From positions 1,334-65,333 of the IMG/VR virus record IMGVR_UViG_3300044621_001461: DNA of 64,000 nt; one strand, given 5' to 3'. Of the stretch, positions 9,771 to 43,015 are shown in pieces; the first letter of the stretch is position 1; each line of letters begins with the position of its first letter. The translations under genes were made by a program, and so were the position numbers. The stretch is from a virus (lineage: Duplodnaviria; Caudoviricetes). Below the pieces are notes generated by a model. That model saw only the letters and a list, made by a program, of their open reading frames with translations. It did not search any database and was not told where the DNA came from.

Positions 9771-9807
9771 AGTTCTGCTTTATGTTGTGCCGCAATAGTA
9801 TTTATAC

Positions 9808-9864
9808 AAGAAAAGGTGCCCGAAAGCACCCAATCTCTGCTATGGTTGCGACACACATAAGCAT
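9808..9864 (-). ncRNA. Putative antisense sRNA A (cognate to endonuclease 9042..9770)
   Basis: TAAATA 9868-9873; 5' hairpin TGCTTATG/CATAGCA; terminator GGTGCTTTCGGGCACC-TTTT; 9846-9863 complementary to leader 9776-9795; second TATAAATA 9799-9806. Confidence 0.7.
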
Positions 9865-11203
9865 CTTTATTTATTTAAGTTCTTCTTCTTGTCTTTCAAT
9901 TTCAAAAGTTTCGTTGAGAAACTCAATTGCGTATTTTCCCACTACGAATGCATCTTTATCCTCAAAGAACCTATCACCAATGGTTCTCATATCATAACAC
10001 TCTTTGCCTTTATCAAAGAAAGCAATCACATAACAGTTCTCTTGTCCTGAACCATTAGATTGATACCACTTGACGAGTTCATACTTGTTGTTACAGGTGC
10101 TCCAACGGAACTCTATGTTACGAAATCTCATTGTTCTCCAACATAGTTTTAATTTGTTTGAGGTCTTCTATTCGTTGTTTAGTAAGGTCGTATTGTTCAG
10201 TATACCAATCAAGGTCATTCACTTCGTGATTGAGTTCTTCACGAATGTCCCATTCATAACATTGAAGGTCTCCTTCTTGGTCTTGTATGAGGTAATTGAG
10301 AGTATCAAGGAGTGACATTTTCAGGAACAGGAGGAGGAGGCAGTTGAGGTGGGGGGGTTTGAGACGTTTGAGGAAGTTGAGGTTGGGGGGTAGGAAGAAT
10401 TACAGGTTCTGGAGCAACTTGTGGTTGTTGTGCTTGGTCAAGTTTCTTTTCCAACTCCATCACCTTTTGGTCTAATGGACTCAAAGGAACTTCTTTTTGA
10501 GAATCTGACAGTTTCCAACCAGTAGCACCAGCAGCAAAGATACTTGCAAGAGCAGCAAAAACAGAAACAGTTTTAGAAAAACTCATTCAATAACCTCCCA
10601 ATGTGCGTCAGATTTGTCACCAAAACGGTTAGTGCCAGTACGAGTGCTAACCCAAAAAAAGTATTTACGATTTTCAGAAGCAAGGAATAATTCACCACCA
10701 GTGTCCTGCTCTACAATACAAACAGGATTGTTGTCCATAATGTTTGCTAACCTATTCTTGGATTTGCTGGACTTTGGTTTGACTGTTACTTTTCTCATTT
10801 TGAATCTCAAGTTTCAGTTTACGAATGGTAGGAAAGAAATAAGCAAAATCTCTTGTTTCAGTGATAGGTTTGGTTTCACCACATACACCACATTTTGCTT
10901 CATAAACAGAGGAGCATCCTACAGAATATACTCCATACTTTTTCCCACAGTCAAAGCAGGTATTGGCAGCATTCTCAAGTTTCTTCAGGAGTGCTTTCTT
11001 TTCTTTGAGGTTCATAACGCAGTTCAACTCCGTATTTGTTTTTGAGGTTGTCTGTGAGGTAATCATACAGTAGGTAGGCAAACCCGTAGTAGGGTCTTGT
11101 GCCAGTTTCGATACTGGTACTCGTTGCGACCGTCCAAAAAATATCAAGTTCGTGTTTTGGTGGAAGAGGTTTCATAAATTTTAAAATTACACCTATTATT
11201 ATA

Positions 11204-11971
11204 TCATAAAATTTGACGAACTTTCCATCCTTTATGTTGTTTTAACTTTCCCCTTAACACTTTTGAAAGGCAAGAAGAATCTAATCCATATTTTTTACCA
11301 AATTTCATCAAAGTAGTAAATTCCTCTATAATTTCTCCATTAGGTGAAGTAAAAAGAAAATGTCTTCTCTGCAAATTTGAAATTGTGTTTCTATGTTCTT
11401 CACTTAAAATTTTATTTTTCATTTTTCTTTTTGTTTCTTCACTTATTTTTTTCCCAATATTTGCTTGTCTTATTTTTTCTTTAGTTTCTTCAGTATGCAA
11501 TCTACCCTTACTACATTTACTTATTTTTTCTCTTGTTTCTTTGGATATATTTTTTTTAGATTCTCTCATTTTTCTTTTAGTTTCTTCCGTATGAAATTTA
11601 CCAGTCATAGATTTACTTTTTTTTATTCTAGTTTTTAAGGAATAAACTCTATTTTTTGATGATTCACTTATTTTTTTTAATGCTTCTTCAGAAAAATTTG
11701 AAGAACCTTGCCCACCATCAGTCCTATTGAGTAAAATACCAGTTTTCAAATTTTTCCTACCAAAAATCGCAATCATATAAATTTCGTGTCTAAATGCTTC
11801 TTCTTCGGTTAAATTTTGCTTTAATAATATTACTCTTGATTTATCTTTAGGTGGTTTTATGTCAGTTTTTTTCCTACTATAATATCTTCTTCCACTACCT
11901 TTACCTATGTAATAAGGAGTCCTATCTTCTCTTAAATACGCATAGGTATAAAATCTTTTAGGATTTACCAT
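11204..11971 (-). CDS. GIY-YIG-like homing endonuclease with NUMOD3 repeats
   Basis: FYTYAYLREDRTPYYIGKG, EEEAFRHE, LLNRTDGG; HTEETKxK NUMOD3 repeats; QHKGW end. Confidence 0.88.
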   Translation of the reverse strand: MVNPKRFYTYAYLREDRTPYYIGKGSGRRYYSRKKTDIKPPKDKSRVILLKQNLTEEEAFRHEIYMIAIFGRKNLKTGILLNRTDGGQGSSNFSEEALKKISESSKNRVYSLKTRIKKSKSMTGKFHTEETKRKMRESKKNISKETREKISKCSKGRLHTEETKEKIRQANIGKKISEETKRKMKNKILSEEHRNTISNLQRRHFLFTSPNGEIIEEFTTLMKFGKKYGLDSSCLSKVLRGKLKQHKGWKVRQIL

Positions 11972-12007
11972 AACTGCTCTTAACTTGGTGGTTATTAGTA
12001 TTTATAC

Positions 12008-12065
12008 AGGAAAAGCACTCGAAAGTGCTTTATCCCAACCCGAAAAGAACCACCAAGTCAGGCAT
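12008..12065 (-). ncRNA. Putative antisense sRNA B (cognate to endonuclease 11204..11971)
   Basis: TAAATA 12069-12074; hairpin GCCTGA/TCGGGT with loop CTTGGTGGTTCTTT; terminator AAAGCACTTTCGAGTGCTTT; complementary to leader 11975-11993; second TATAAATA 11999-12006. Confidence 0.72.
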
Positions 12066-12074
12066 TTTTATTTA

Positions 12075-12422
12075 TCAGGTAAAGTCTTCATCATTTAACT
12101 CCACATCTTTTACAAGGTCTTTAAGGTCATTAAAAAAATCTTCAGTCAACGGTATTAGTTTCTCTTCACCTCTATCAATTCTATCACACATTTCCATCAG
12201 ATATTCCAGAAACTCTTTTGGATATGTTTCATCCATATTGATGCTACACCAGAACCATTCGTAACACTCTTGAAATGGATCATCAGTTTTCAGTAGAGCA
12301 TAATCCTTATAATTTCCACCGATAAGGTCTTTCCACATTTTGAAATTGTTTCCAATCTCATGCCAACCAGTTTGCAGGCAGTGACCGAAATAATACTCAA
12401 ACCAGTTCAGTTTCTTCTTCAT
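12075..12422 (-). CDS. Hypothetical protein, paralog of 5592..5915
   Basis: Near-identical core sequence to 5592..5915. Confidence 0.8.
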   Translation of the reverse strand: MKKKLNWFEYYFGHCLQTGWHEIGNNFKMWKDLIGGNYKDYALLKTDDPFQECYEWFWCSINMDETYPKEFLEYLMEMCDRIDRGEEKLIPLTEDFFNDLKDLVKDVELNDEDFT

Positions 12423-13984
12423 CTACCTCTTCCAGTCGTTCCCAATTCCAAGTGTACTCAATAAATCCAATATCAAATCCAAACTTATATGCCCAGAACA
12501 TAATACTCAAAAGACTACCAGTTCCAGATTTGATTTGAATATATGGACAACCAGGATAATCATTCCAAGAAATCGATGCCTGAAGAAGTGCCCAACGGTC
12601 TGTAAATAGAAATTGAACATACCACTCGTGTCCAAAGTCTTCACGATAAGACCATTTAGCAACTTGAAAAAATTTAATTGGTTTCATTATTGTCCTCAAA
12701 GTCAAACCATTCATATAGAGAGTTTACCACACCATCTACCACACAATCAACCACAGCATCTTCGTGTGGATTCTCTACATGTTTGTGAGCACGATCATAT
12801 CCAAATCGGACACCTTCTTCCAGTGCCATCTCAAGAACTTTACGAAAATTGGGTTTCATCAATCTCTTCTCATATCATCATCAGTTCTAAAAAAATCTGC
12901 GATATCATCTGCACCATCGAACCTTGTACGGTGCTCTGATGGGTCAGGATGCCCTAAATCCATAATATTTAAAAATTCATCCAGACTTCCTTCTTTCATA
13001 TTGGGATTTGATGCCTTTCGTCTTGCCTGACGGAGTATTGTAGCGGCAGAACGATTTGCTTTCGCAAGTTTTTCTGCCCAGATCATATCTTCTAAACTCA
13101 CCTCATCGCCTGTTGCAATCCTATCACAGATTGCTTCAAGACGCAGGCGATATTGTGTAGAGAGCATAAGAATTACCAGATGTAGTGTTATTTATTTTTA
13201 TATTCGTCCATTAACTCTTTTGCAAGTTTCATAGAACGGCGATGCATTGAATATTTTGCCCATGGAGTTGTGGGATTGTGAATTAACCACCATTGAAAAA
13301 TCAAACACTTATTCTTGATAATTATTGTAAGGTAATAAAAGGCAGTAGCGACACTATCATCCGTTGCGATGAAGTATGCTACTACCACAAATACAATAAA
13401 CCAAGCGTAATAGGTCATCGTCTTATTGTTTTTAGATATTCTAACACATGCTCACGAACCGACATGAGTTCATTGTAACATTTTTGGTTATGAGCACATT
13501 GACGAAGTTCATGGTCTGGTTTGTGTACGCTCTCAATAAACAGATCGAGACCACGATTCCACTTAACGTCAGGTGATTCTTCCATAATCAGTTCTGTAGT
13601 TATACTATTTAACGTGTTTAAAGAAACTTGTCTAAACTGGAAACCGATGCTCCTTTTGCGGACTTTTGAATGTAGGTTTTTGCGGACTTATAGTTGTTTG
13701 TAATGTGAACTTGCTGTCCATTATGGAGAATAATAAATTTTTTACCCCAAGAAACTGCTGCCCACATTCCATCCTTGGTCACATAACCGTTTGGATCTCC
13801 TGGTTTGGGATTGAGAATACCTTCGTTTTGAGTGTTCATAGAAAGGTAGCAGTGGCACTGATGATGCGAGCATTTGGATGTTGTGCAGAAGCAACTTGCT
13901 TTGCTTCTTGAATATTATTGGCGTAACATTCAAACCACCAAGTTTGACCGCCGACATAGAGTTGAACTTTGTACTTCATTGGAA

Positions 13985-15220
13985 TTAACGCTTAACGACA
14001 GAGATTGCAGGTTGACCTTGGTTGAACACGGTGTCCACCACCGCTTGCACCTTCCTAGCGGTGCTGATGCCCACAGAAGAGTAGACAGGGATGCAGACCA
14101 ACCCAAAGGACTTGGTGTAGGTTTCAACGGCACCAGGGGCGATCCTGCCGCTGCTGAGACCCTCTGCGTCGTCCTTGTGCAGACGGATCACCCGCCCGAT
14201 GGTCTGAGAGATGCCGATGTAATCCATAGAGCGCATAAACAGAACTGCCTCCAGACCAGACACATTGATGCCTTCAGACAGAATGCTGTGATGAAGAACA
14301 ACAAACTTCTTAGAGTCATCCTTGCCCCAGGCAGAGAGAGTGTCAAAGAACACCTCGCGATTGACCTTACGACCATCGATCACGGCACCAGTCTTGGAAG
14401 TGATATACATCCAAGAGAATCCACGGTTTTCCAGTTGCTTACAGAAATCAGTTTGAGAAACCAGATTCTGAATCTGTTTGGTTGCCTTGGAGCAGATAAG
14501 AACCTTACCCACCTCCTGAGCATCGATGGTTTGAATCAGGTTCTCACAGTCAACATCAGCAACAATCTGACCCTTACTCAACATCTCAAACTGCTGCACA
14601 ACAACCTTAGGGGGCACAATGAAACCACCCTCAACAAGTTCAGGGGCAGGGACATTACAAATCACCTGACCATATACTGCACCATCATTCATCCCAGGTT
14701 TGGAAATAGTGGCAGAATGCTTAGGAGTAGCAGTGAAGAAATAGCAGCGGTCAGCAGTAGAAGCGAAGTGCTCCGTAGCAGGGAAAAAGTGACGTTGAAC
14801 ACTGTTATGTGCCTCATCAAAGTAAATGGTGTCAACCTTAAGGTCTGCCTGCTGCAGACGCTGCAGAGAGTTATAGGTAGTGAAGATCAGTTGATGCTTA
14901 TAAGCACGACGAGACCAGTTATGAATCTCATTGGGGCGAGTCGTGCTAAAATGATGTGTCTCTCCCGAGTGCAAATGTGCAACAGAAGCATTGGTAATAA
15001 ACTCCAAAAACTCAGAAGACAATTGCTCAGCCAAAAGAATTCTTGGGCAAACAATGACGATTGTTTGTGCTTGAGATTGAGAAAACTGACGAATAGCATC
15101 AAAAATCATTACAAGGGTCTTACCGCCGCCAGTGGGGATAATGACCTGCCCCTTGCGGTGCTGCAGCAGGGCATCCAGAGCACGTTGCTGGTGAGGTCGG
15201 AGTTGAATCACAGGTCTCAT
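13985..15220 (-). CDS. Superfamily 2 (DEAH-type) helicase
   Basis: LRPHQ, PTGGGKT, DEAH, TATP, ILSEGINV, QTIGRVIR; start moved to 15220 because the track start lies upstream of the -10 box. Confidence 0.92.
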   Translation of the reverse strand: MRPVIQLRPHQQRALDALLQHRKGQVIIPTGGGKTLVMIFDAIRQFSQSQAQTIVIVCPRILLAEQLSSEFLEFITNASVAHLHSGETHHFSTTRPNEIHNWSRRAYKHQLIFTTYNSLQRLQQADLKVDTIYFDEAHNSVQRHFFPATEHFASTADRCYFFTATPKHSATISKPGMNDGAVYGQVICNVPAPELVEGGFIVPPKVVVQQFEMLSKGQIVADVDCENLIQTIDAQEVGKVLICSKATKQIQNLVSQTDFCKQLENRGFSWMYITSKTGAVIDGRKVNREVFFDTLSAWGKDDSKKFVVLHHSILSEGINVSGLEAVLFMRSMDYIGISQTIGRVIRLHKDDAEGLSSGRIAPGAVETYTKSFGLVCIPVYSSVGISTARKVQAVVDTVFNQGQPAISVVKR

Positions 15221-15233
15221 CGCGTATGAACTT

Positions 15234-15294
15234 ATTATAGCAGCAAAAAGGGGTCTCATGCGGAACCCTGTGTGACGGTTCTTAAAGTGTCACT
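15234..15294 (-). promoter_or_regulatory. Early promoter cassette for the helicase
   Basis: attata 15234-15239; TGTGACG-N10-TGTCACT 15271-15294. Confidence 0.7.
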
Positions 15295-15333
15295 ATAAAA
15301 GATCAGATCCTCATCTCCAACCCAGACAAAGGT

Positions 15334-15376
15334 AGTCTACATGGATTTTATGGGTATGTCAACTTTGTGGTATAAT
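15334..15376. promoter_or_regulatory. Divergent sigma70-type promoters
   Basis: Minus strand TTGACA-N17-TAGACT (15362-15334); plus strand extended -10 TGGTATAAT (15368-15376) before ORF 15405. Confidence 0.6.
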
Positions 15377-15404
15377 GTAAAAAATCCAAGATTTATCAAC
15401 TCCA

Positions 15405-16079
15405 ATGCAAAATAATTTATTTCCAATAACGATCATCGATAATTTTTATTCAAACCCAGATGAAGTTAGACAAATAGCTTTGGAGCAAGAATATATGCCA
15501 AGTGAAAAGGGATCTTGGCCTGGAGAAAGAAGTATTAAAAACTTAGATGATATTGATGAAAAATTATTTTTATTCTTTTCTAAAAGTATTTTGAGTTTAT
15601 TTTATCCACCAGAATATCGAATAGGATTTGATATAGTGTCTTGCTTTCAAAAAGTATCACCAAGACATGAAGAAAAATATCATCCAAAAAATATGGGATG
15701 GATACACAATGATGGTTGTTTATTTGGTGGATTGATTTATTTGACAGAAAATCCAGAAAAAGATACAGGAACTTCTATTTACACCGAAAAAAATACATAT
15801 TTTAGATATGAAATGGAAGATTCTATGGTAATGAGAAATGATTACTTAAAAAAATCCAATATAGATGATGAAAAATATTCAGAAGTACATAAAAAAACTT
15901 TTGAAGGTTATGATGAAACAGTTAAAATAGAAAATCTTTATAATCGTTGCATTCTATTTGGGGGAAATAATCATCATGCAGCACAAACTTTTGGCACTAA
16001 AGAGCGTTTAACTCAAGTATTTTTCTGTTACAGAATAGACTCTGAGTGGCAATATCCTTTTTGTAGAAATATTTTTTAA
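15405..16079 (+). CDS. 2OG-Fe(II) oxygenase-like protein (DUF6445-like)
   Basis: IIDNFYSNPDEVR, WPGERS, GWIHND, GLIYL, GTS, NLYNR, HHAA, RLTQVFF. Confidence 0.8.
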   Translation: MQNNLFPITIIDNFYSNPDEVRQIALEQEYMPSEKGSWPGERSIKNLDDIDEKLFLFFSKSILSLFYPPEYRIGFDIVSCFQKVSPRHEEKYHPKNMGWIHNDGCLFGGLIYLTENPEKDTGTSIYTEKNTYFRYEMEDSMVMRNDYLKKSNIDDEKYSEVHKKTFEGYDETVKIENLYNRCILFGGNNHHAAQTFGTKERLTQVFFCYRIDSEWQYPFCRNIF

Positions 16080-16657
16080 CGTGGTAAAATATTAATATTA
16101 AAAGATACTATTTTTCTTTCATGTTCTGACGTATTTCTATGCGTAAAATGGGATATCATTGATGGAAATAAAATTAAAGATCCTTCTTTTATATCCCTTA
16201 GAGATACAATTTCTAAAGAACCATCAAAAACATCAACATGTGGAGATACAAAATTTACAGGTTTATGATAATTTTCATTATAATCTAAGTAGCATATACC
16301 ACTAACTCCTATTCCATGATTATGAATATTATGGTTCATTCCTGTTTTTTCTATTTGAAACCAACTATTTTCTACTGAAAAAGATGGAAAACTAAAATTA
16401 CTTTGATAAATTTTTAGTTCTTCTGAGAAAATATTTTCTATATCTTTGTTTAATTTTCCATTTAAACCATAATTGTTGTTTTCACAATAAGTTGTCATAA
16501 CATTTGCAGAAGATTCAAATTCATATGATTTCATTAATTCATTTAATTTTTCCTTTTTACTCTTCCAATTTTCGCAAATAATATGGAAAATTGGAACACT
16601 AAAAATACCTATTATCTCTGGATTATTATTTGTCATCTTTTTTTTCATCCATATCAT
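16076..16657 (-). CDS. 2OG-Fe(II) oxygenase (TIGR02466-like); probable start about 16636
   Basis: IFSVPI, SW, HNH, SGICYL, EGSLILFPS.I.H, RKIVSFN. Confidence 0.85.
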   Translation of the reverse strand: MIWMKKKMTNNNPEIIGIFSVPIFHIICENWKSKKEKLNELMKSYEFESSANVMTTYCENNNYGLNGKLNKDIENIFSEELKIYQSNFSFPSFSVENSWFQIEKTGMNHNIHNHGIGVSGICYLDYNENYHKPVNFVSPHVDVFDGSLEIVSLRDIKEGSLILFPSMISHFTHRNTSEHERKIVSFNINILPR

Positions 16658-16973
16658 TTAGAATATTGTTAAAAACTTCTTCCCATTCTTTGTCATCAAA
16701 ACTCCATTTATTTAATGGGCAACTTTCTAGAACAAATTTTGCCTTTACTGATAAAAAACAACCACATTCGTAACAACGATTTTGAGAATTGTCGTATCTA
16801 TCACATCCTTTACAAGTTTCTATTCTTTTATTGTAAATATTATCAGAGGCAATAAGGGTTTTATTTTCTTCATTATCATTATTTTGCAAATACTGAAGAA
16901 AATTGAGAGAAAATTTTGCTAGATTTTTTCCTTGCTGTAGTAATGATGGATATTTTTTATTTTCCATGGTCAT
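16626..16973 (-). CDS. Cys-rich small protein (DUF6171-like)
   Basis: R..CKGC...CYECGCFL..K......CP..KW. Confidence 0.7.
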   Translation of the reverse strand: MTMENKKYPSLLQQGKNLAKFSLNFLQYLQNNDNEENKTLIASDNIYNKRIETCKGCDRYDNSQNRCYECGCFLSVKAKFVLESCPLNKWSFDDKEWEEVFNNILNDMDEKKDDK

Positions 16974-17001
16974 AACATAATTTAATTCTTGAAGGTATTT
17001 A

Positions 17002-25962: not shown

Positions 25963-26034
25963 TGCTCGTTGTCGGTTACGATCCGACCTTCTATCGTTTA
26001 TGAGACGATTGCATTCCCAGATTGCTAAACGAGC
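25963..26034 (-). tRNA. tRNA with CAU anticodon (elongator Met or Ile2), atypical T-loop
   Basis: GCTCGTT/AACGAGC-A; ATCGT-CTCATAA-ACGAT; GTCGG-ATCGTAA-CCGAC. Confidence 0.85.
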
Positions 26035-26058
26035 ATTCGCTATTTGCGAATAGCGAAT
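26035..26058. repeat. Perfect 10-bp hairpin spacer between two tRNAs
   Basis: ATTCGCTATT-TGCG-AATAGCGAAT. Confidence 0.8.
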
Positions 26059-26129
26059 GGGGATACTGGGAGTTGAACCCAGACTAAGCCCTTATAAGGA
26101 GCCCGCTCTAACCATTAAGCTATACCCCC
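26058..26129 (-). tRNA. trnI: tRNA-Ile(UAU)
   Basis: GGGGGTA/TATCCCC-A; GGCTC-CTTATAA-GGGCT; GGTTCAACTCC. Confidence 0.9.
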
Positions 26130-36102: not shown

Positions 36103-36142
36103 TCTAAATATCCTATATGAGATTTATAGTATAGTTATTTAG

Positions 36143-36574: not shown

Positions 36575-36583
36575 TAATAAATA

Positions 36584-36961
36584 ATGCCTAGAAAGTCTCT
36601 TAAAGATAGAGGAAAAGTAAATCGTATCGCTCCATTAGTTAAAAAACTAATCGGAACAGAGTCTGCTGACGATTTAATGCTTGAACTAATGAGCATCTTA
36701 ACAGAAACAAGAAACCCTCCAGTTGCAGGAAAGTTTTATATTTTTGTATATAATGCTAAAACTCTAGGTGTAAGGTATGACCAAAACCCACTAGTAGCTG
36801 TAACTGATGTTTATAAATGGGGTTTCAAAGGTATTAATTTTCACTGGGGAGAATCTAGACAATATACTTGGGATGAGGTTGCTGGTGGTTTATATGAAGT
36901 TTATCAACAAGAAATTACAGATTTGAGAAGATTGCCTTTTAGTAATATTAGAACTAAATAA
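36584..36961 (+). CDS. DNA end-protector gp2-like protein
   Basis: GKFY.FVY.AK....YD..PL, GF.GINFH. Confidence 0.65.
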   Translation: MPRKSLKDRGKVNRIAPLVKKLIGTESADDLMLELMSILTETRNPPVAGKFYIFVYNAKTLGVRYDQNPLVAVTDVYKWGFKGINFHWGESRQYTWDEVAGGLYEVYQQEITDLRRLPFSNIRTK

Positions 36962-36974
36962 TTAGAAAACATAA

Positions 36975-37889
36975 ATGGAAGCAAAGCCAGCTTTAAGATA
37001 TCCACTTAAAAAAATTACCGATTCTGATGATTATTTAAAGATTGATATTTTGGAATATAAACCCCCTGGTTTTAGCAACCAACCAGATTCTTTTGCATTG
37101 AATACTTCAGATCAAACTTATGCAAATATAGGCGTTAAAGATATTTTAGATACAATTTTTCTTCCTATTCCAGACAATCTTCAAGATAGTAATTCTGTAA
37201 GCTGGGGTTCTGATTCATTAAATCCTATTCAAGCGGCGGCAGGTAGTCTAGGTTCAGCAGTAGTTAAAGACGCCTTTACAGGAAATACAAAAAATATTAT
37301 TGATAAAGTTCTAAAAGGTGCAACAAATATAGGTGAATTTGCTAAAACTGGATTAGGTCAAGATGTAATTGCAGCGGGTGCTGCTGGTTTTGCTGCTCAA
37401 GCATTATTAGGAGTAGATAATGTCTCATCTTTTATAAGAAGACAATCTGGTGTTGTTGCAAATCAGAATTTAGAACTTCTTTTTAGTGGAATTGCAATTA
37501 GACCAGAATTTTCATTTGCATATGATTTAGTTCCTAGGTCAAAAGACGAAAGTGAGATGGTTAAACAAATCATCAGAAGATTTAAATATCATAGTGCAGC
37601 AAAAAAGGGAAGTGCTACCTTTGGACCTGGTGCTGGGTTATTCTTAAAAGCACCAAACGTTTTCAAAATTACGTACAGAAGTGGTAATCGAGACCATCCA
37701 TTCCTAAATCGTTTTAAAGTTTGTGCATTAATTGGAATGTCTGTTGACTATGCTGCATCAGGAACATACGCAACTTACCCAGATGCAACACCAACACATA
37801 TGAGAATGGGTCTTACATTTAAAGAACTCACACCAATTTACAGAGAAGATTATGAATCTGGTATCGGAAGAGATGGAGTAGGATACTAA
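36975..37889 (+). CDS. gp48: Baseplate tail-tube cap gp48
   Basis: LRYP, IFLPIP.NL.D, N.ELLF.G...R.F.F, PRS..E, C.L..M.VDY, L.FKE. Confidence 0.88.
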   Translation: MEAKPALRYPLKKITDSDDYLKIDILEYKPPGFSNQPDSFALNTSDQTYANIGVKDILDTIFLPIPDNLQDSNSVSWGSDSLNPIQAAAGSLGSAVVKDAFTGNTKNIIDKVLKGATNIGEFAKTGLGQDVIAAGAAGFAAQALLGVDNVSSFIRRQSGVVANQNLELLFSGIAIRPEFSFAYDLVPRSKDESEMVKQIIRRFKYHSAAKKGSATFGPGAGLFLKAPNVFKITYRSGNRDHPFLNRFKVCALIGMSVDYAASGTYATYPDATPTHMRMGLTFKELTPIYREDYESGIGRDGVGY

Positions 37890-38539
37890 TGACTTACTTT
37901 AGAGAATTACCAAACCTAGAATATCAATCATTCTTACCTGATAGCAAATCATCAGATCAGTATTTAACTGTAAAAAATCTTTTTCGTAGAGTTAAACTTC
38001 GCGATGATTTACAAAATGTATTTACAGTTTTTGATAAGTACCAAATTGTTGATGGCGCTCGTCCAGAAACAGTTGCAGAAGAACTTTATGGAAGTACTCA
38101 ATACGACTGGGTAGTCATTGTAAGTGCTGGTATTACTCGTATTAGAGATGAATGGCCACTATCAAGTAAAGATATCTATGATTATTCTTATGAAAAGTAT
38201 GGTAATGATTTAAATGCAATTCACCATTATGAAACTACCGAAGTTAAAGACTCTCAAAACAGACTAATTCTACCTGCTGGTAAAGTAGTTGATGCCAACT
38301 TTACAATTCCAAATCCAAGTCTTCCAACAGCAACATTAAATCCAGTAACTGGCGTAAGTAACTATGAATATGAGGTTGCTAAAAATGAAGAAAAAAGAAC
38401 AATTTATGTTTTAAAACCAATCTATCTACAACAAATTATCAATGATACAAGAAAAGCGATGACTTATGATAAATCATCGCAGTATGTAGATAATAGATTG
38501 ATTAGAACTGAAAATACTAAAGCATCAAATCCATTTTAA
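37889..38539 (+). CDS. gp53: Baseplate wedge protein gp53
   Basis: YFRELPNL.Y, KNLFRR, RPE.VA.ELYG, WP, HHYET, YEYE...NE.KR. Confidence 0.92.
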   Translation: MTYFRELPNLEYQSFLPDSKSSDQYLTVKNLFRRVKLRDDLQNVFTVFDKYQIVDGARPETVAEELYGSTQYDWVVIVSAGITRIRDEWPLSSKDIYDYSYEKYGNDLNAIHHYETTEVKDSQNRLILPAGKVVDANFTIPNPSLPTATLNPVTGVSNYEYEVAKNEEKRTIYVLKPIYLQQIINDTRKAMTYDKSSQYVDNRLIRTENTKASNPF

Positions 38540-39124
38540 TTCTAGATTCTTATCAAACATCATCACATATCGGTGCTTGCGGGAGCGGTCTTTCCATTCT
38601 CCTTCAGCACCTTTTACTTTTCCACGAGAGTGTTTAGTTCCGTCTGAATAATAGAAATCTTTTTTAGGGTCTGTGAGACCTACATACTTAAAGTTACAAG
38701 CACGATAAATTGTACCAGAATGGTAATCTGAATCAGCATAAGAAATGATTGCTTTAACTTCAGTATCTTTCCGAAGTTGTCTAATCGCTCGTGACACAAA
38801 CCAAGAAGTGATGTTATATTCGCATGACTGCGTACTAGGTTCGATGCAAAGTCTTGAGAGTTCGAAGAGTCCTTGTTGTTCATTTCGTTCTAATCCAAAA
38901 GCACCTTGTGCTATTTCTGGTACTGGTAAGTTTGTAAAAACGCAGGCACCTAATGATCCGCCAATATTCATTATATCTGTAAAAGATTTTTTATACAAAG
39001 AATAATTATATCCGCTTTTGAAATCTTTTGATATATCTTTAAGATAATGATGATTATATAATAATTCTTTTATTTCTGATTTTGGAACTTTTTGAATATA
39101 ATAATCACTTTTCATAAAAAACAC
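38525..39124 (-). CDS. Mom-like (GNAT-fold) DNA modification protein
   Basis: HHYL, ELSRLC, SWFVSRAI, IISYAD...H.GTIY.A.NF.Y.G, KHRY. Confidence 0.75.
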   Translation of the reverse strand: MFFMKSDYYIQKVPKSEIKELLYNHHYLKDISKDFKSGYNYSLYKKSFTDIMNIGGSLGACVFTNLPVPEIAQGAFGLERNEQQGLFELSRLCIEPSTQSCEYNITSWFVSRAIRQLRKDTEVKAIISYADSDYHSGTIYRACNFKYVGLTDPKKDFYYSDGTKHSRGKVKGAEGEWKDRSRKHRYVMMFDKNLELKWI

Positions 39125-39776
39125 TATACTTGTAAATATAATATTTTGATCTACCAGTCATTTTTACAGCATCTTTTATGCAATCATATACTACACCATT
39201 ATAGCATAGTTTTCTCGCTCTTGGATTTTTGCCTCCCATTATATCTGAATTTTGAATACCATTATTCCAAGGTTTTCTTCCCTTACAAGAATCACTTATT
39301 TTTTTCCTAACTTCTGGTCTTTTAGTCGGATTTTTATCTCCAACTAATTTTCCTCTTGCCCTTAAACCTTTTTCTATATCCGATTGCTTTCTTTTTTCGG
39401 TCATAGTTTTTGGAGTTCCTCTATTTGCTTCTGCAATTTTTCTTTTATGAGATTCGGATAAAGGTTTTCCAAGTCTTGCTTTTTTTCTGTTTTGAATATC
39501 TTGTTCGGTCATTACTTTTTTAGAGCATCCTTTTCCACCATCAGTTTTGTTATGAAGAATACCTGTTCCTAAATCTTTTCTACCAAAGATTGAAATCATA
39601 TAAATTTCGTGTCTAAATGCCTCTTCTTCGGAAAGATTTTTCTTTAAGAATAAAATTCTCTTTTTTGATGGTGGATAAAAACCACTATGCTTTAAAAATG
39701 CTCTTCTACCCTTTCCTTTCCCAATATAGTAAGGAGTTCCATCTTCACGCAAGTATGCGTAAGTGTAGTATTCCAT
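39105..39776 (-). CDS. GIY-YIG-like homing endonuclease with NUMOD3
   Basis: YYTYAYLREDGTPYYIGKG, EEEAFRHE, ILHNKTDGG, LSESHKRKI, PWNNG. Confidence 0.88.
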   Translation of the reverse strand: MEYYTYAYLREDGTPYYIGKGKGRRAFLKHSGFYPPSKKRILFLKKNLSEEEAFRHEIYMISIFGRKDLGTGILHNKTDGGKGCSKKVMTEQDIQNRKKARLGKPLSESHKRKIAEANRGTPKTMTEKRKQSDIEKGLRARGKLVGDKNPTKRPEVRKKISDSCKGRKPWNNGIQNSDIMGGKNPRARKLCYNGVVYDCIKDAVKMTGRSKYYIYKYSVFYEK

Positions 39777-39811
39777 CTGCTTCTAAATTAAGGTCGCAAT
39801 AGTATTTATAA

Positions 39812-39866
39812 TAAAATAGGGTGGATTTCTCCACCCTTCTCTAAAAGTGCGACCTTATTAGAGCAT
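39812..39866 (-). ncRNA. Putative antisense sRNA C (cognate to endonuclease 39105..39776)
   Basis: TAAATA 39870-39875; hairpin CTCTAA/TTAGAG with loop TAAGGTCGCACTT; terminator AGGGTGGAGAAATCCACCCT; complementary to leader 39778-39798; second TATAAATA 39803-39810. Confidence 0.72.
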
Positions 39867-39879
39867 TAATATTTAGACA

Positions 39880-40806
39880 TCAATCATCAGATGCTAATTT
39901 TGCGAAATACGACAACGCATCATCGTCCTCATCTTCCTCAACCGCAGCAGCACGGCGGGTGGGTTGAAGATTGTTGAGTTCGGTGCGAAGATCTTCATCA
40001 AGATCTTTCGCAGGACCACGGGAATAGGTCTCTTCTTCAGCAACTTCTTCATCCACACGGCGGGAACCTTTGGAACCCAACACATAGTCAAGACGCTTCT
40101 TCAATTCATCATAAGACTTGAACTGATCAGCAGCAACAAGTTCAGCAAGAGAATATTGCTTCTTCCAGATTGCTTCCATTGCATCATCGTCGTCCAGCAA
40201 AGCACCTTGTGCGGCAAACTCACTGGAATCATAGTTGCGATAACCAGCAACGTTCTTTGCCTTCAGTTTGAAGTTAGCACCTTGCCAGAAATCAAACGGA
40301 TCAATTGCTTCCTCATCTTCAAACTCAGGTTGCATTGCAGCAGTCAGTTTGTCAAAGATCTTCTTACCAAACTTATACAGGAAGACCTTACCTTCGTTGG
40401 AGGGATTAGCAGGGTCCTTCACAACGTAAATGTTGGAGATATAAGTCAGTTTACGCTTCTGCTTGCGGGCAAGTTCCTTACCAGCATCAGTGCCGTTGTT
40501 CCAGAGTTCAGAGTTCAGTTCCGACACAGGATCCTTCTGACCCAGAGTAGTCAAACTTGATTCTATATACCATCCGCCAGGACCTTGAAATGCGTGACTG
40601 TAGAGTTTCACGAATGGTAGGTCCTCACCATTCGGAGCAGGAAGAAAACGAATAACAGCGAATCCATTACCTGCTTTATCACATTCTAAACGCCATACAC
40701 GTTCATCGGAGGAAGAACTTGAGGAATTCATCTTCTCAACTTCCTTAACAAGTTTGGCGGTAAGATTACCGAGTTTGGATTGTTTTTTAAGATTTTGAAA
40801 GCTCAT
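39880..40806 (-). CDS. gp32: Single-stranded DNA-binding protein gp32
   Basis: GNGFAVIRFLP, HAFQGPGGWYIE, FGKKIFDK, GANFKLK, NYDSS.F, acidic C-terminal tail. Confidence 0.97.
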   Translation of the reverse strand: MSFQNLKKQSKLGNLTAKLVKEVEKMNSSSSSSDERVWRLECDKAGNGFAVIRFLPAPNGEDLPFVKLYSHAFQGPGGWYIESSLTTLGQKDPVSELNSELWNNGTDAGKELARKQKRKLTYISNIYVVKDPANPSNEGKVFLYKFGKKIFDKLTAAMQPEFEDEEAIDPFDFWQGANFKLKAKNVAGYRNYDSSEFAAQGALLDDDDAMEAIWKKQYSLAELVAADQFKSYDELKKRLDYVLGSKGSRRVDEEVAEEETYSRGPAKDLDEDLRTELNNLQPTRRAAAVEEDEDDDALSYFAKLASDD

Positions 40807-40860
40807 TTTGGATTACTTTGGATAAATTGGATTTGTCGGATTTGGTTTTGCGACAACTTT

Positions 40861-40889
40861 ATTATAGAAGACCTATAAAGGGATGTCAA
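40861..40889 (-). promoter_or_regulatory. sigma70 promoter of gp32
   Basis: TTGACA-N17-TATAAT; -35 overlaps the HNH stop codon. Confidence 0.8.
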
Positions 40890-41386
40890 GCCCTGGTCCA
40901 ACCTTTATGCTGTTTTCTGCCATACTTTCCTCTTAATGTAGAAGTCATGGCACCTTGATCTAAATTATTTTCAATACAAAATTGTTTTAAGTTTGTTGTA
41001 GTATGAATTTTTCCAGTAGGATCTTTTAACCTCCAAGTAATTGGATTTTTAATGTACTTATTTTTTCTTGATATTCTACCGTGTAAGGAGCACAAAGAAA
41101 TATTTTCAGATTGAGTTCCCCATTTCAAATTATTAATATTATTATTTTTTGGATTATCATCTAAATGAAGAACATTTGGATAATTGTTTGGATTTTCTAA
41201 AAAAGATTTTGCTACTAAACGATGAATATATGAAGAAACCCATTTTCCTTCATCACTTTTAATAGATACAAACTTATATCCACAATTATTTTCATAAGAA
41301 TTTATATAATCTTTTTTAGATAAAGAAAATACCTTTCCAGTATCTTCAATAAGATAATTAGAAAATCCTTCTATTTTATTAAACAT
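40886..41386 (-). CDS. NUMOD4-HNH homing endonuclease
   Basis: IEGFSNY.I...G.V, HRLVA..FL.NP.NYP.V.H.DDN..NN...NL.W.T..EN, QHKGW. Confidence 0.9.
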   Translation of the reverse strand: MFNKIEGFSNYLIEDTGKVFSLSKKDYINSYENNCGYKFVSIKSDEGKWVSSYIHRLVAKSFLENPNNYPNVLHLDDNPKNNNINNLKWGTQSENISLCSLHGRISRKNKYIKNPITWRLKDPTGKIHTTTNLKQFCIENNLDQGAMTSTLRGKYGRKQHKGWTRA

Positions 41387-41447
41387 ATTAGTTAGTGTCT
41401 TTTACTATATTTATTTAGTAAATGACATTATTATAGCAAAGATACCC

Positions 41448-41780
41448 TCAGCGGTCAATGAATTGCTTGAGAGACTCAATGGTTTTAGTCATACTGCCAA
41501 ATAATATACTCATATCAGTTTCTGGGGGAAATCCCATCAGTGCCACTGATTTGCGTAGGTTCTCTTTCATTTCAATCGCCTTTGGATCATCTGAAAGAGA
41601 TAACCTAGTATACATCACTCTTTGCTTTTCTAGCAAGAGTTCAAGTTTTTCAATGTGTTCCAGTTTGGTCTCGCGGGACATTGCACCAAAAGTAAGAATA
41701 CTTCCGTAAATTTCTTCTTGCAACTTGTTAATTTCTTTCAGTTCATCCTGAATAATATTGGAGTCAAAAAAGTTACTCAT
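41448..41780 (-). CDS. Conserved cyanophage protein (DUF1825-like)
   Basis: FFDS..IQ.EL, EKQ.VMYTRLSLSDDP.A. Confidence 0.75.
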   Translation of the reverse strand: MSNFFDSNIIQDELKEINKLQEEIYGSILTFGAMSRETKLEHIEKLELLLEKQRVMYTRLSLSDDPKAIEMKENLRKSVALMGFPPETDMSILFGSMTKTIESLKQFIDR

Positions 41781-42369
41781 CTATAATTGTCCTTAAAATC
41801 TTTTTAAACTGGAATACATCCGTATTTAGGAATGGTGTATATTTTTTGATTTTTAAACTTACGGTTTCCCACACTGGATCTAGCAATTTCTTATCAAAAT
41901 CTTTTGAGAAATGGAATATTTTTTCGTAGATTGTTAAGGTTTCTAGCGACAATTGCCCGCTTAGAAACTTTTTGAGGACTGGTGGATGCCCTTTGGAACA
42001 ATTCAAGGCATCCTCTAATTTGGTCTCCAAGAAGAATTCGTTGCTTTGTTCCTTGAATAAGTAAGTCAAACTCTGTTGTCTCCGCATCCAATCTGCGTAA
42101 GTCCTTTCTCCAGAGTTGATAATTTCTCCAATCCATATTTGATTTACGCTAGTAGATTCTACAAAGTTTGCAACCAAGAAATTAACAATCTCTTCGTCCT
42201 TATACTTTCGACTTGTTTTTTCGAACCAGTATTTATCGGTTCGACGGTTAAACGATGTTACAGACGCACGGACTTTTTTATTATATTTGAAGTAATCATA
42301 TTTTGGATTACTAAAATGCGATTTCAAAGCAAGGTATTCACAATAAACTTGATATGGAGACACCTTCAA
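41773..42369 (-). CDS. gp59: Helicase loader gp59
   Basis: YLALK.HF...KYDYFKY, F..R.DKY.FEK, HP..LK, SLETL; TTGACT-N17-TATGAT promoter at 42421-42393. Confidence 0.88.
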   Translation of the reverse strand: MKVSPYQVYCEYLALKSHFSNPKYDYFKYNKKVRASVTSFNRRTDKYWFEKTSRKYKDEEIVNFLVANFVESTSVNQIWIGEIINSGERTYADWMRRQQSLTYLFKEQSNEFFLETKLEDALNCSKGHPPVLKKFLSGQLSLETLTIYEKIFHFSKDFDKKLLDPVWETVSLKIKKYTPFLNTDVFQFKKILRTIIDE

Positions 42370-42417
42370 TTTATTACATTACAATCGTATGTATCATACC
42401 ACGCTTCTGGAGTGAAG

Positions 42418-42906
42418 TCAATCTGCCTTTTCAAGTTTTTTCTGGTGATAAAGTTCTCGTTTGCGTTGATTTAATCTATCTTTATTTTTAGCACGCCAAG
42501 CACGCTCTGTCTCACGACGCCTCTCTATTCTTTTGTCTCTCCACGCTTTCACCCTCTCTGGGTTTGCGTGGTAATATTTCTTATTATACTCACGCATATA
42601 TTCTTTCTTATGCTTCTCACGCAATATAGGGTCAAGCGGCAAACTTGAGCCATTTTTTCCGCCATCGTGTATATTAATTAGTATTCCACCATCACATTTT
42701 CTACCATAGACAGAGATTAACCATTCTTCGAATATGTAGGCATCTTCTTCAATATCAAAATATTTTATAATCTTAATTCTGTCTTTATCGACAGGGCATA
42801 TATCTCCGCCACCTCTAATATGAGGATTATAGCACCTTCTACCAATACCTTTACCAACATAATAAGGAGTCATATCCTCTCTCAAATAGAGATAAACGTA
42901 ATACAT
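42418..42906 (-). CDS. GIY-YIG-like homing endonuclease
   Basis: YYVYLYLREDMTPYYVGKG, A..FE..LI..YGRK..GGILIN..DGG; basic C-terminus; start at 42906 by analogy with the other cassettes. Confidence 0.82.
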   Translation of the reverse strand: MYYVYLYLREDMTPYYVGKGIGRRCYNPHIRGGGDICPVDKDRIKIIKYFDIEEDAYIFEEWLISVYGRKCDGGILINIHDGGKNGSSLPLDPILREKHKKEYMREYNKKYYHANPERVKAWRDKRIERRRETERAWRAKNKDRLNQRKRELYHQKKLEKAD

Positions 42907-42942
42907 TTCTGCTCTTAACTTAGGTGACATAAGTATTTATAC

Positions 42943-42999
42943 AAGAAAAGGGCATCAAGTGCCCTCCTCTACCTGAAAAGTGTCACCTAAGTCAGGCAT
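42943..42999 (-). ncRNA. Putative antisense sRNA D (cognate to endonuclease 42418..42906)
   Basis: TAAATA 43003-43008; hairpin TGCCTGA/TCAGGTA with loop CTTAGGTGACACTTT; terminator AGGGCACTTGATGCCCT-TTT; complementary to leader 42910-42929; second TATAAATA 42934-42941. Confidence 0.72.
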
Positions 43000-43015
43000 C
43001 ATTATTTAGTTATAA

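Follow-up and report, generated by a model that had tools for sequence, protein, structure and literature searches.

A T4-type translational lock and a candidate small-RNA gene in cassettes that travel with free-standing homing endonuclease genes

Background

In I-TevI, I-TevII, I-TevIII, segB and Aeh1 mobE, an RNA helix hides the translation start on transcripts that come from upstream promoters (PMC2988022). Because TATAAATA lies within the T-even-type structure, late transcripts are made without its 5' arm. Among marine metagenomic (GOS) 'fractured genes' with free-standing endonuclease ORFs, hairpins were reported in 15 of 16 5' UTRs, 10 of them with TATAAATA, and the hairpins upstream of these ORFs include two complementary motifs (Dassa et al. 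2009, PMC2677866). A non-coding RNA tied to a homing endonuclease gene has also been described in a cyanomyovirus, namely CfrI of cyanophage S-PM2 (Millard et al. 2010; PMC2984593, PMC12197685).

The four cassettes (c1 to c4) considered here lie in a 64-kb stretch of DNA from a T4-like cyanophage, referred to below as the window. They resemble the T-even genes in having TATAAATA inside the structure and a homing endonuclease under control, but, set against that account (PMC2988022), they have a long-range helix with an intrinsic terminator inside it as well and an invariant second TAAATA 4 nt before the 5' arm, and this arm can form a covarying hairpin of its own. When the T4 genome was searched with a relaxed dual-motif pattern, there were two matches versus one for the reversed-pattern control, and no U-run terminator was seen by eye in either. 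The GOS set shares with the cassettes a source in marine phage-like DNA and the inclusion of GIY-YIG endonucleases, and its hairpins very probably belong to the same family of elements; neither a terminator nor a second promoter upstream, an alternative local hairpin or a separate RNA is mentioned in the parts of that account drawn on here (PMC2677866). CfrI is likewise a non-coding RNA linked to a cyanomyovirus homing endonuclease gene, but it is described as a true antisense transcript of ~225 nt opposite F-CphI and psbA (PMC2984593, PMC12197685), and a pattern search of S-PM2 detected no cassette (one match versus four in the reversed-pattern control).

An earlier note on this DNA knew of no description of the architecture. 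Since TATAAATA hairpins upstream of marine endonuclease ORFs were reported earlier (PMC2677866), and the lock is also known (PMC2988022), this is true only of the combination of upstream promoter, local hairpin and terminator as a small-RNA gene. We did not find a description of an invariant, insert-borne upstream TAAATA, of a helix starting at the expected transcription start, or of a covarying local hairpin exclusive with that helix.

Results and discussion

Layout of the cassettes

On the minus strand, all four sites show the same succession of TAAATA, 4-nt spacer, hairpin, intrinsic terminator, TATAAATA, complementary leader and nuclease ATG (Table 1), and in each the leader pairs with the 5' arm and loop of the hairpin. 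The layout claimed in the earlier note is real, and the family as a whole keeps it, with the upstream TAAATA at its fixed spacing. Re-derived from the TAAATA cores, the promoter spacings are 69, 70, 67 and 69 bp, as claimed; TAAATA, exactly 4 nt and TGC follow one another in 4/4 copies; and for the leader said to end in AGCA, AGCAG was found 1–6 nt ahead of the ATG in all four. A simple scan flagged the proposed terminator in two copies, and the remaining two have a GC-rich stem and U-run in their folds. The pattern TAAATANNNATGCN{35,60}TATAAATA matched the 65-kb record four times, always on the reverse strand and never on the forward strand, with no match for the reversed-pattern control; TATAAATA occurs eight times over both strands of the 64 kb, four of these being the cassette sites. 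No Rfam family was found at the four sites even at E <= 5.

Table 1. Positions of cassette features in the window
Feature	Position	Strand	Remarks
c1 upstream TAAATA, candidate late promoter (P-up)	9868..9873	-	Invariant in 106/106 family cassettes
c1 predicted 54-nt anti-leader RNA	9809..9862	-	From fold; start inferred from T4 late-promoter rule
c1 predicted RNA parts		-	Hairpin 1 9839-9862; terminator stem-loop 9814-9831; U-run
c1 TATAAATA late promoter (P-down)	9799..9806	-	Inside long-range helix; TAAATA cores 9868-9873/9799-9804
c1 leader	9771..9794	-	Pairs with hairpin-1 5' arm and loop; ends AGCAGAACT before ATG
c1 nuclease-family ORF, 242 aa	9042..9770	-	Single-linkage clustering and motif only
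c2 upstream TAAATA (P-up, candidate)	12069..12074	-	
c2 predicted 55-nt anti-leader RNA	12009..12063	-	Hairpin 1 12034-12063; terminator 12012-12031; U-run
c2 TATAAATA late promoter (P-down)	11999..12006	-	TAAATA cores 12069-12074/11999-12004
c2 leader	11972..11994	-	Complementary to c2 arm
c2 homing endonuclease ORF, 255 aa	11204..11971	-	NUMOD3, phrog_314
c3 upstream TAAATA (P-up, candidate)	39870..39875	-	Left end of insert versus empty sites
c3 predicted 52-nt anti-leader RNA	39813..39864	-	Hairpin 1 39839-39864; terminator 39818-39837; U-run
c3 TATAAATA late promoter (P-down)	39803..39810	-	TAAATA cores 39870-39875/39803-39808
c3 leader	39777..39798	-	Complementary to c3 arm
c3 homing endonuclease ORF, 223 aa	39105..39776	-	GIY-YIG-fold N-terminal domain and NUMOD3
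c4 upstream TAAATA (P-up, candidate)	43003..43008	-	
c4 predicted 54-nt anti-leader RNA	42944..42997	-	Hairpin 1 42971-42997; terminator and U-run 42944-42970
c4 TATAAATA late promoter (P-down)	42934..42941	-	TAAATA cores 43003-43008/42934-42939
c4 leader	42907..42929	-	Complementary to c4 arm
c4 endonuclease-family ORF, 162 aa from ATG at 42906	42418..42906	-	

The downstream genes had all been called GIY-YIG-like nucleases. This is borne out for c3, which has the GIY-YIG fold and NUMOD3, and in part for c2, which has NUMOD3, while c1, which shows no BLAST similarity to the c2–c4 nucleases within the window, joins the family by single linkage and motif only. The longest c4 ORF begins at an in-frame ATG at 42930, within the leader.

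Pattern scans requiring TATAAATACT located further loci in IMG/VR cyanomyovirus contigs, from which 106 unique cassettes with ~34 different seeds were parsed, although the contigs are often related and these counts are not phylogenetically independent. The cultured phage S-SRM01 has about six cassettes. Among the 102 downstream ORFs no shorter than 50 aa, 98 belong to a single endonuclease cluster, and each cassette is a self-contained regulatory unit travelling with a free-standing homing endonuclease gene.

The long-range helix

The earlier note had each hairpin match its own leader through a loop-centred sequence. The specificity was recovered in a 4x4 matrix of duplex energies (diagonal -21.0 to -23.6, off-diagonal -5.3 to -13.8 kcal/mol), but 'loop-centred' is too narrow, as it is the entire 5' arm, starting at the T or G of TGC, together with the loop that pairs with the entire leader to GCA. 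This helix of 17–20 bp begins 5 nt after the upstream TAAATA and ends a few nt short of the AUG. Full-length cassette RNAs fold at -34.1 to -37.6 kcal/mol (z = -3.85 to -6.86), energies that none of 200 shuffles per copy reached. The long helix, enclosing terminator and promoter, is the minimum-energy fold of the read-through RNA in 4/4 copies, which supports the suggestion that read-through mRNA is locked in cis. Among 89 non-redundant cassettes, pairing with the leader is seen in 13 at position 4 after TAAATA, in 65 at position 5 and in 87 at position 8, and positions 10–21 each show four to six pair types. For 18 same-geometry sequences, whose selection from minimum-energy folds inflates the percentage paired but not the double-change counts, 97.1% of helix cells were paired versus 79.4% in shuffled and 32–41% in slid sequences; 0/500 shuffles matched the paired fraction, and 10 of the 17 pairs had compensatory changes. 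Over 34 seed classes the own leader was the best partner for 32, with mean duplex energies of -23.2 kcal/mol for cognate and -9.5 kcal/mol for non-cognate combinations. Between the 4-nt spacer and the AUG region there was no pairing specific to cognate combinations (3.02 vs 3.05). Judged from sequence and predicted folds, the helix, which covaries strongly, is a lock of the T4 type already known to close the ribosome binding site.

The upstream TAAATA and the local hairpin

The upstream TAAATA was present in all 106 cassettes, including all 53 that were chosen without that motif, and a 44-sequence alignment shows it to be invariant and the flank upstream of it unconserved. At two empty sites (L214 and L217) the gp32 stop runs directly into the downstream gene and TAAATA is absent, so that, by this comparison, the motif is part of the insert and arrives with it. 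The cyanophage late promoter has been given as NATAAATA (PMC2984593), and tail and baseplate genes of the window have the same short NTAAATA 20–45 nt upstream, none with the full TATAAATA. Both cassette promoters have the downstream context N-T-N-N-T-G. Since TAAATA is common in this AT-rich genome (93 matches vs 81 ± 8 expected), the promoter reading rests on positional invariance and not on the motif. Late transcripts of T4 start about 6 nt past the motif, a rule that may not be that of cyanophages; the long-range helix begins exactly at the start expected for a late transcript from the upstream TAAATA.

A local hairpin formed in 106/106 folds of the short RNA, and the covariation claimed for it was confirmed: four of seven pairs were compensatory, and its score of 0.509 (vs 0.262) was equalled by none of 500 shuffles. 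The same-geometry subset behind these values was again selected from minimum-energy folds, with the same bias towards a high percentage paired but none in the tally of double changes. The local hairpin and the long-range helix are mutually exclusive. A lock that worked purely in cis would have no use for the hairpin, although it may stabilise the 3' end of the upstream mRNA or assist folding during transcription. Together with the terminator, the upstream TAAATA and this hairpin look like a gene for a 52–55-nt small RNA. The RNA data covered were low-depth metatranscriptome contigs, a form of data in which transcript ends are not visible.

Proposed switch and alternatives

On the T4 paradigm, transcripts arriving from the upstream gene would mostly end at the terminator, and those that read through would have their translation start shut inside the helix, while late transcripts from TATAAATA would have the first leader-arm nucleotide as their 5' end, lack the 5' arm and be translatable. 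The invariant upstream [A/C]TAAATA would provide a second, generic cyanophage-type late promoter, its product a 52–55-nt RNA made up of a self-folding hairpin with an anti-leader seed and the terminator. By pairing end to end with the cognate late mRNA, at its 5' end and Shine-Dalgarno region, such an RNA would damp nuclease synthesis or set a threshold for it, like an adjacent type I antitoxin RNA; in cofolding, the duplex of predicted small RNA and mRNA 5' end was favoured by 13.0–14.7 kcal/mol. Adjacent, non-overlapping type I toxin-antitoxin RNA pairs include zorO-orzO, tisB-istR-1 and shoB-ohsC. By analogy, the predicted short RNA lies beside its target, has ~18–20 nt complementary to a 5' UTR or translation start, and would act on an mRNA encoding a potentially harmful protein; unlike those pairs, the cassettes are co-directional, with the RNA upstream and not divergent, and their target would be a nuclease, not a membrane peptide. 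The RNA is thus not 'antisense' in the genomic sense that the earlier note implied, as it is predicted on the same strand as its target. Because both promoters would fire late, a repressor made beside its target needs a rationale, for which a threshold or delay is our conjecture. A cis lock combined with a second late promoter making a trans-acting 52–55-nt RNA is the best explanation overall, and we give it an even chance of being correct; its small-RNA part, trans repression included, is plausible and about evenly balanced.

Another possibility, which we hold tentatively, is a late switch that works in cis alone, being the classical T4 design to which a terminator has been added. The 5' arm would then have the single task of locking the translation start of read-through transcripts, TAAATA at the upstream position would be no working promoter or would yield a functionless product, and the local hairpin would merely aid folding, termination or the 3'-end stability of the upstream gene. 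This mechanism is established in phage homing endonuclease genes (PMC2988022), TATAAATA-enclosing hairpins are known at marine endonuclease ORFs (PMC2677866), and the long helix is the preferred full-length fold at all four sites. A perfect sigma-70-type promoter (12/12 positions) stands upstream of gp32, so transcripts can be expected to run on into c3. The T4 consensus has a TA that is present downstream in 117 of 121 cassettes but missing upstream in 111, so the upstream element may be weak or inactive. No solo small-RNA units were found among 93 candidates, of which 92 had a downstream promoter 58–81 nt on and the last one slightly farther. However, a cis-only switch leaves unexplained why an insert-borne TAAATA should be invariant at fixed spacing in every cassette, why the local hairpin that competes with the lock has compensatory changes, and why helix covariation ends exactly at the predicted start; moreover, a promoter at the upstream TAAATA would generate the very read-through RNAs that need locking.

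Two further readings give a small RNA no role. Polymerases from the upstream promoter might terminate at the U-run and transiently occlude the downstream late promoter; the U-run ends 2–3 nt ahead of TATAAATA, abutting it in 4/4 copies, and the core-to-core spacing is narrow (64–75 bp in 106/106 cassettes), but such interference needs neither the local hairpin nor seed–leader complementarity, although selection acts on both, and we regard it as improbable. Still less probable, and in our judgement very unlikely, is that the inverted repeat acts as DNA, with protein sites flanking the late promoter, such as the nuclease's own operator (compare I-TevI autorepression). The I-TevI operator does overlap the I-TevI late promoter (PMC2988022), and the promoter of each nuclease is flanked on either side by sequence private to that nuclease. 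Against this, the family tally for the helix is 93 G·U pairs versus a single A·C 1x1 mismatch, so that selection acts on the sense-strand RNA, as one-strand RNA pairing and not a DNA palindrome would leave it, and single-nucleotide bulges occur on the 3' side of the repeat. The seeds, too, differ even between close nuclease relatives.

Layout of the cassettes in the window

The window comes from a viral contig of 65 kb with a CheckV completeness of 29%. The contig is that of a T4-like cyanomyovirus and carries genes for gp32, for a late-transcription coactivator of the gp33 type and for the tail and baseplate. Among named phages it is closest, by gp32 DNA, to Synechococcus phage S-SRM01 and Prochlorococcus phage P-SSM2 (77-78% identity). 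In a simple ORF call, 69 of the 77 genes in the window lie on the minus strand. The layout that the earlier note had described was found before all four nuclease genes (c1-c4): TAAATA, 4 nt, a hairpin opening with TGC (hairpin 1), a GC-rich stem-loop with a U-run, TATAAATACT, a leader and the ATG, with the two promoter cores 69, 70, 67 and 69 bp apart, as that note had also stated. The leader ends in AGCAG before the ATG at all four sites. The arrangement is not a chance one, because the composite pattern has four matches on the reverse strand of the record as opposed to none on the forward strand and none with the reversed-pattern control, and because the late promoter TATAAATA occurs only eight times in the 64 kb, four of these being cassette sites. 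In c4, the longest ORF begins at an in-frame ATG inside the leader arm; the real start, by homology, is the ATG adjoining it, and automatic annotation would probably miscall it.

Positions of the cassettes and of other features discussed in the text (window coordinates unless a locus is named)
Feature	Position	Strand
c1 cassette	9771-9876	minus
c2 cassette	11972-12076	minus
c3 cassette	39777-39876	minus
c4 cassette	42907-43010	minus
Leader-arm stretch with the in-frame ATG of the longest c4 ORF	42907-42930	minus
Start ATG of c4 by homology	42906	
Nuclease region whose ORF overlaps the 199-aa gene	39105-39885	
Cover of c3 by two metatranscriptome contigs	39768/39759-39875	
HNH_3 nuclease gene	40886-41386	minus
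Sigma-70-type promoter match	40861-40889	minus
Sigma-70-type promoter match	41430-41458	minus
Group I catalytic intron, RF00028	25706-25896	minus
tRNA gene	25963-26034	
tRNA gene	26058-26129	
TAAATA at 120-nt intervals	57152-57632	minus
TAAATA at 120-nt intervals	59945-60065	minus
TAAATA at 120-nt intervals	61848-62088	minus
1185-aa ORF	56757-60314	
TAAATA-terminator-CTAAATA unit, Syn9	L197:1500-1570, 119411-119476	
TAAATA-terminator-CTAAATA unit, P-SSM4	L200:1500-1570	

Sampling and distribution of the cassette family

A scan of IMG/VR that required the upstream motif gave at least 110 stretches, and one that required only the U-run and TATAAATACT gave at least 114. The family was taken to be those TATAAATA sites in the fetched loci whose leader pairs with the upstream region. 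Among the matches listed, a helix of 9 bp or more was present at 179 unique TATAAATA sites; 116 of these passed the position filters, 110 of the 116 had an ATG, and in 106 of the 110, which form the family set, 11 or more long-range pairs enclose the promoter. The other 73 of the 179 resembled unrelated late promoters or chance matches and were dropped. The 106 cassettes among the matches listed fall into approximately 34 classes of seed (the segment of hairpin 1 that is complementary to the cognate leader), differing at more than 4 of the first 22 nt.

The cultured phage S-SRM01 has seven pattern matches, approximately six of them with the full layout by eye. The pattern search found no cassette in T4, and the phages with published start-site maps (Syn9, S-PM2, P-HM2, P-SSM2 and P-SSM4) gave four matches versus five in the reversed-pattern controls, none of them a cassette. 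The matches in Syn9 and P-SSM4 were rejected: they consist of TAAATA, a short stretch, a strong terminator and CTAAATA, and have no anti-leader segment. In both phages the unit follows the major head gene region and precedes a small gene; it may represent another kind of short late transcript, or no more than a stop codon with a terminator and a promoter. Solo small-RNA units lacking the downstream promoter were not found in the 1.78 Mb of loci. A comparison with Rfam, proposed in the earlier note, was also carried out, and no family matched the sites at gathering score or at E <= 5.

The nuclease genes behind the cassettes

The ORFs downstream of the cassettes are homing endonuclease genes: NUMOD3 motifs are present in c2 and c3, and c2-c4 match phrog_314, "homing endonuclease". 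The c3 model, built with 49 family sequences, has a confident N-terminal domain (residues 1-80, pLDDT 87-96) whose best three matches among 48,161 chains are all GIY-YIG domains with moderate Z values, namely 7.5 (rmsd 1.9 over 65 residues), 6.8 (rmsd 2.2 over 67 residues) and, for I-TevI, 6.0 (rmsd 3.1 over 70 residues). In the 49 sequences Y6 is invariant and Y17, G19 and E57 are at least 90% conserved; we take these to be the Tyr, Tyr/Gly and Glu of the GIY-YIG catalytic motif. A PDB sequence search gave E = 0.4, and the only match to a Pfam GIY-YIG model was LEM-3_GIY-YIG at E = 0.13. Because no Pfam GIY-YIG model reaches threshold, "GIY-YIG-like", as these nucleases had been called from the sequence, is the right wording.

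Among the downstream ORFs of at least 50 aa, 98 of 102 belong to one BLAST cluster with the window nucleases, a cluster that c1, which has no BLAST similarity to c2-c4 within the window, joins by single linkage only. The remaining four include PD-(D/E)XK-like and endonuclease VII-like proteins, each by a weak match. A fifth nuclease gene in the window, the HNH_3 gene located between a DUF-type gene and gp32, has TAAATAAATA upstream but no anti-leader hairpin and no terminator, and the cassette is therefore tied to the GIY-YIG-like family and not to nucleases generally. Four cassettes, in locus L176 and three other loci, precede ORFs of merely 5-57 aa. These may be orphans whose nuclease gene has decayed or been lost; one locus of the orphan type was noted by Dassa et al. 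(PMC2677866).

A long-range helix over the translation start

When the whole RNA from hairpin to ATG is folded, the minimum-energy structure of all four window copies is a long-range helix of 17-20 bp, in which a 5' arm starting at the T or G of TGC pairs with the leader down to the GCA just before the AUG. The terminator and TATAAATA sit in its loop, this downstream late promoter being enclosed in each of the four copies. The folds have energies of -34.1 to -37.6 kcal/mol (z of -3.85 to -6.86); each copy was shuffled 200 times, and no shuffled sequence was as stable. Folded alone, the segment between the two promoters gives two hairpins, which are hairpin 1 and the terminator. Therefore, two mutually exclusive structures are available to the same 5' segment: the first hairpin of the earlier note does form in the inter-promoter fold, but in the full-length minimum-energy fold the long-range helix takes its place.

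In all 106 cassettes, the distance between the end of the helix and the AUG is -2 to 9 nt. In the 89 non-redundant cassettes, counting from the upstream TAAATA, pairing with the leader is found in 13 at position 4, in 65 at position 5 and in 87 at position 8, and it holds in 75-89 of the 89 through position 21, with four to six pair types at positions 10-21. When 44 diverse cassettes were aligned with MAFFT, seeds of differing length were misaligned and RNAalifold yielded no structure; covariation was instead assessed by per-sequence folds and same-geometry subsets. In 18 sequences of identical geometry, 97.1% of cells are paired versus 79.4% in shuffled sets (0 of 500 reach the observed value) and 32-41% in slid controls, and 10 of the 17 helix pairs have changes on both sides; as this subset was picked from minimum-energy folds, the paired percentage is inflated and the count of double changes is unaffected. 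The helix contains 93 G·U pairs as opposed to a single A·C 1x1 mismatch, an asymmetry that rules out a DNA palindrome and identifies the strand as that of the nuclease mRNA. The long helix is, by this pattern of substitution, under selection as RNA.

The pairing is also specific to each copy. The mean duplex energy is -23.2 kcal/mol for cognate arms and leaders versus -9.5 kcal/mol for non-cognate ones, and for 32 of 34 arms the best-ranking leader is the cognate one; in the window, the diagonal of the 4x4 duplex matrix lies at -21.0 to -23.6 and the off-diagonal values at -5.3 to -13.8. Both comparisons agree with the earlier claim that each copy matches its own leader. Twenty loci hold two to five cassettes each, and of the 80 non-cognate pairs that reside together in them none approaches the cognate one to within 4 kcal/mol. 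That the lock reaches across the 4-nt spacer as far as the AUG was rejected, there being no cognate-specific signal (3.02 versus 3.05 for shuffled partners). As anatomy, a lock in cis combined with an insulating terminator and an internal late promoter is near certain; by analogy to T4, it would very probably function as such.

The local hairpin and the predicted small RNA

In short-RNA folds, hairpin 1 and a terminator-like hairpin with a U-run form in all 106 cassettes, although a simple scan flags the terminator in two of the four window copies. At positions 6-10, the basal stem of hairpin 1 pairs in 83-89 of the 89 cassettes and shows several types of pair. Covariation of this stem had been claimed for the four window copies, and it extends across the family: in 21 sequences of the same geometry, four of the seven pairs show double changes, and the covariation score is 0.509 versus 0.262 when shuffled (0 of 500 reach it), with slid controls 36-50% paired. 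The local hairpin is conserved despite competing with the lock.

A promoter-like box, a stable hairpin and a terminator occur all together in the cassette, which is the anatomy of a small-RNA gene, and there is specific complementarity to the translation initiation region of the target, as in a type I antitoxin-like RNA. Antisense RNAs of the CopA/RNAI type carry the seed in an apical loop, where kissing is initiated. The seed here spans the 5' side of hairpin 1, its internal loops and an apical loop of 4-6 nt, and only part of it is predicted to be unpaired. When the predicted RNAs of 52-55 nt were cofolded with the first 70 nt of the predicted mRNAs, the duplex was favoured by 13.0-14.7 kcal/mol.

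The RNA evidence comes from four metatranscriptome runs of three studies, present as contigs only, with 7-8% of the sampled words in each. No contig of these four runs covers the nuclease ORF. Two short, low-depth contigs from the same study (X1 record 1 and X3 record 18) bridge c3, and both stop matching at the first T of TAAATA, the leftover 48 and 34 letters being foreign to the window. This fits a c3-type cassette in another genomic context, and is uninformative on RNA ends or strand, with DNA carry-over possible.

The upstream TAAATA

The upstream TAAATA is present in all 106 cassettes. After it, position 5 is T in 104 of them, position 6 is G or A in all 106, and position 7 is C in 102. 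It is likewise present in all 53 cassettes that lie outside the motif-demanding scan pattern (22 from the second scan and 31 as same-contig by-catch). In an alignment of 44 sequences its six bases are invariant and the flank upstream has no consensus; the preceding base is A or C in 115 of 121 cassettes. The full TATAAATA is found at the downstream element in 117 of 121 cassettes versus 10 of 121 at the upstream element. In the window, NTAAATA lies 20-45 nt ahead of tail and baseplate genes, and the full TATAAATA ahead of none of them; the cyanophage late promoter is given in a review as NATAAATA (PMC2984593). By this likeness, the upstream motif is of the phage's own late-gene type, and an N-T-N-N-T-G context lies downstream of both promoter elements. 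TAAATA by itself shows no enrichment in the window (93 versus 81 +/- 8 expected), and its strand bias is strong, the minus strand having 70 matches and the plus strand 23. In T4, late transcription starts approximately 6 nt after the motif. By this rule the mRNA would start at the first nucleotide of the leader arm, and the upstream transcript at the G of TGC, which is the onset of the covarying helix.

The motif could have been a leftover of the target site, a reading that was rejected for c3 because two fetched loci with empty sites, L214 and L217, have no TAAATA. These loci share the 3' end of the window gp32, their homology to the window ends 2 nt past the gp32 stop, right before TCTAAATA, and the stop is followed directly by a downstream 199-aa gene. 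Judged by the empty sites, the upstream TAAATA belongs to the insert. It was also considered as a multi-frame stop signal and rejected, since by eye it provides stops in two frames at most. In the window, the 3' end of the c3 nuclease ORF overlaps the start of the 199-aa gene by approximately 20 nt.

Possible roles of the upstream promoter

The comparative anatomy of the cassettes suggests that the upstream TAAATA probably drives a discrete short RNA. Whether this RNA represses the cognate late mRNA in trans is closer to an even question, and our estimate falls slightly on the negative side. If so, a late repressor of approximately 55 nt would be an exact complement, in its 5' end and seed, to the cognate late mRNA at the 5' end and Shine-Dalgarno region of the latter. 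The dozens of seed classes would then constitute a natural set of mutually orthogonal small-RNA/leader pairs, allowing several selfish nucleases to reside in one genome with each capped independently. We tentatively propose that each mobile GIY-YIG homing endonuclease gene of this lineage may carry its own small-RNA repressor of about 55 nt, as an orthogonal module that is spread by homing and resembles a type I toxin-antitoxin system; as a whole this proposal is credible, though we would not call it probable.

The main rival is a switch that acts in cis only. For the small RNA, the strongest argument comes from logic: a lock in cis is needed only against transcription from upstream, and an upstream promoter of the cassette's own would create the read-through that the lock must solve, unless its RNA is useful. 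We consider the cis-only switch a real possibility, if a doubtful one. Transcriptional interference from the upstream promoter is a weaker rival and appears quite unlikely, while a DNA operator is contradicted by the asymmetry between G·U pairs and A·C mismatches and is highly improbable.

Relation to known systems

Homing endonucleases are selfish genes, which need enough expression to spread without harming the phage. To our knowledge, only a few T-even cases have shown how a homing endonuclease is fitted into the transcription programme of its host. In abundant marine and freshwater cyanophages, the cassette seems to solve this problem completely and in portable form, combining an insulating terminator with a translation-start lock, a late promoter of its own and possibly a small RNA.

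The best-described relative is the T4-type lock, in which a late promoter lies inside an RNA hairpin. For I-TevI, early and middle transcripts form a stable RNA structure that hides the ribosome binding site, and the late promoter is placed so that late transcripts miss part of the structure; comparable arrangements are described for I-TevII, I-TevIII, segB and Aeh1 mobE (PMC2988022). The cassettes share with this design a helix over the translation initiation region (106 of 106), a late promoter, TATAAATA, inside the structure, late transcripts predicted to lack the 5' arm, and a homing endonuclease as the regulated gene. Dassa et al. 2009 noted RNA hairpins in 15 of 16 endonuclease 5' UTRs of "fractured genes" from marine metagenomes, and the word "terminator" is absent from the main text of that paper (PMC2677866); these hairpins are very likely the same element. 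The claim that the architecture was undescribed is thus only partly right, because the core of the lock is the known T4 mechanism and very likely the element seen in the hairpins of Dassa et al. (PMC2988022, PMC2677866); as regards the upstream promoter and the local hairpin, we found no description in the portions of the literature covered.

Such a small RNA was likewise not found in the portions of the literature searched, which included the phage-RNA papers PMC12197685 and PMC10690425, and the only cyanophage RNA found there in connection with a homing endonuclease is CfrI of S-PM2, a true antisense RNA of 225 nt. If the small RNA is confirmed, the finding could prove to be more than a variant of the lock: within this non-exhaustive literature, we believe that it would be the first phage mobile element with a private trans-acting RNA repressor, and the approximately 34 seed classes among the matches listed would be a ready-made library of orthogonal RNA-RNA pairs. 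Even if it acts in cis only, the cassette is a clean RNA element, rich in covariation, for which Rfam has no family.

Other features of the window

Two sigma-70-type promoter matches are located upstream of gp32. One, at 40861-40889, is a perfect match to TTGACA-17-TATAAT (12/12), just upstream of gp32 and within the 3' end of the HNH nuclease ORF; the other lies further upstream and scores 11/12. In T4, in parallel, gene 32 promoters are located inside segG. The group I catalytic intron (62.6 bits versus a gathering score of 50) lies directly downstream of two tRNA genes. TAAATA is also repeated at exact 120-nt intervals in three stretches within and beyond the 1185-aa ORF, a periodicity that points to tandem repeats of 40 aa in a large, probably structural, protein.
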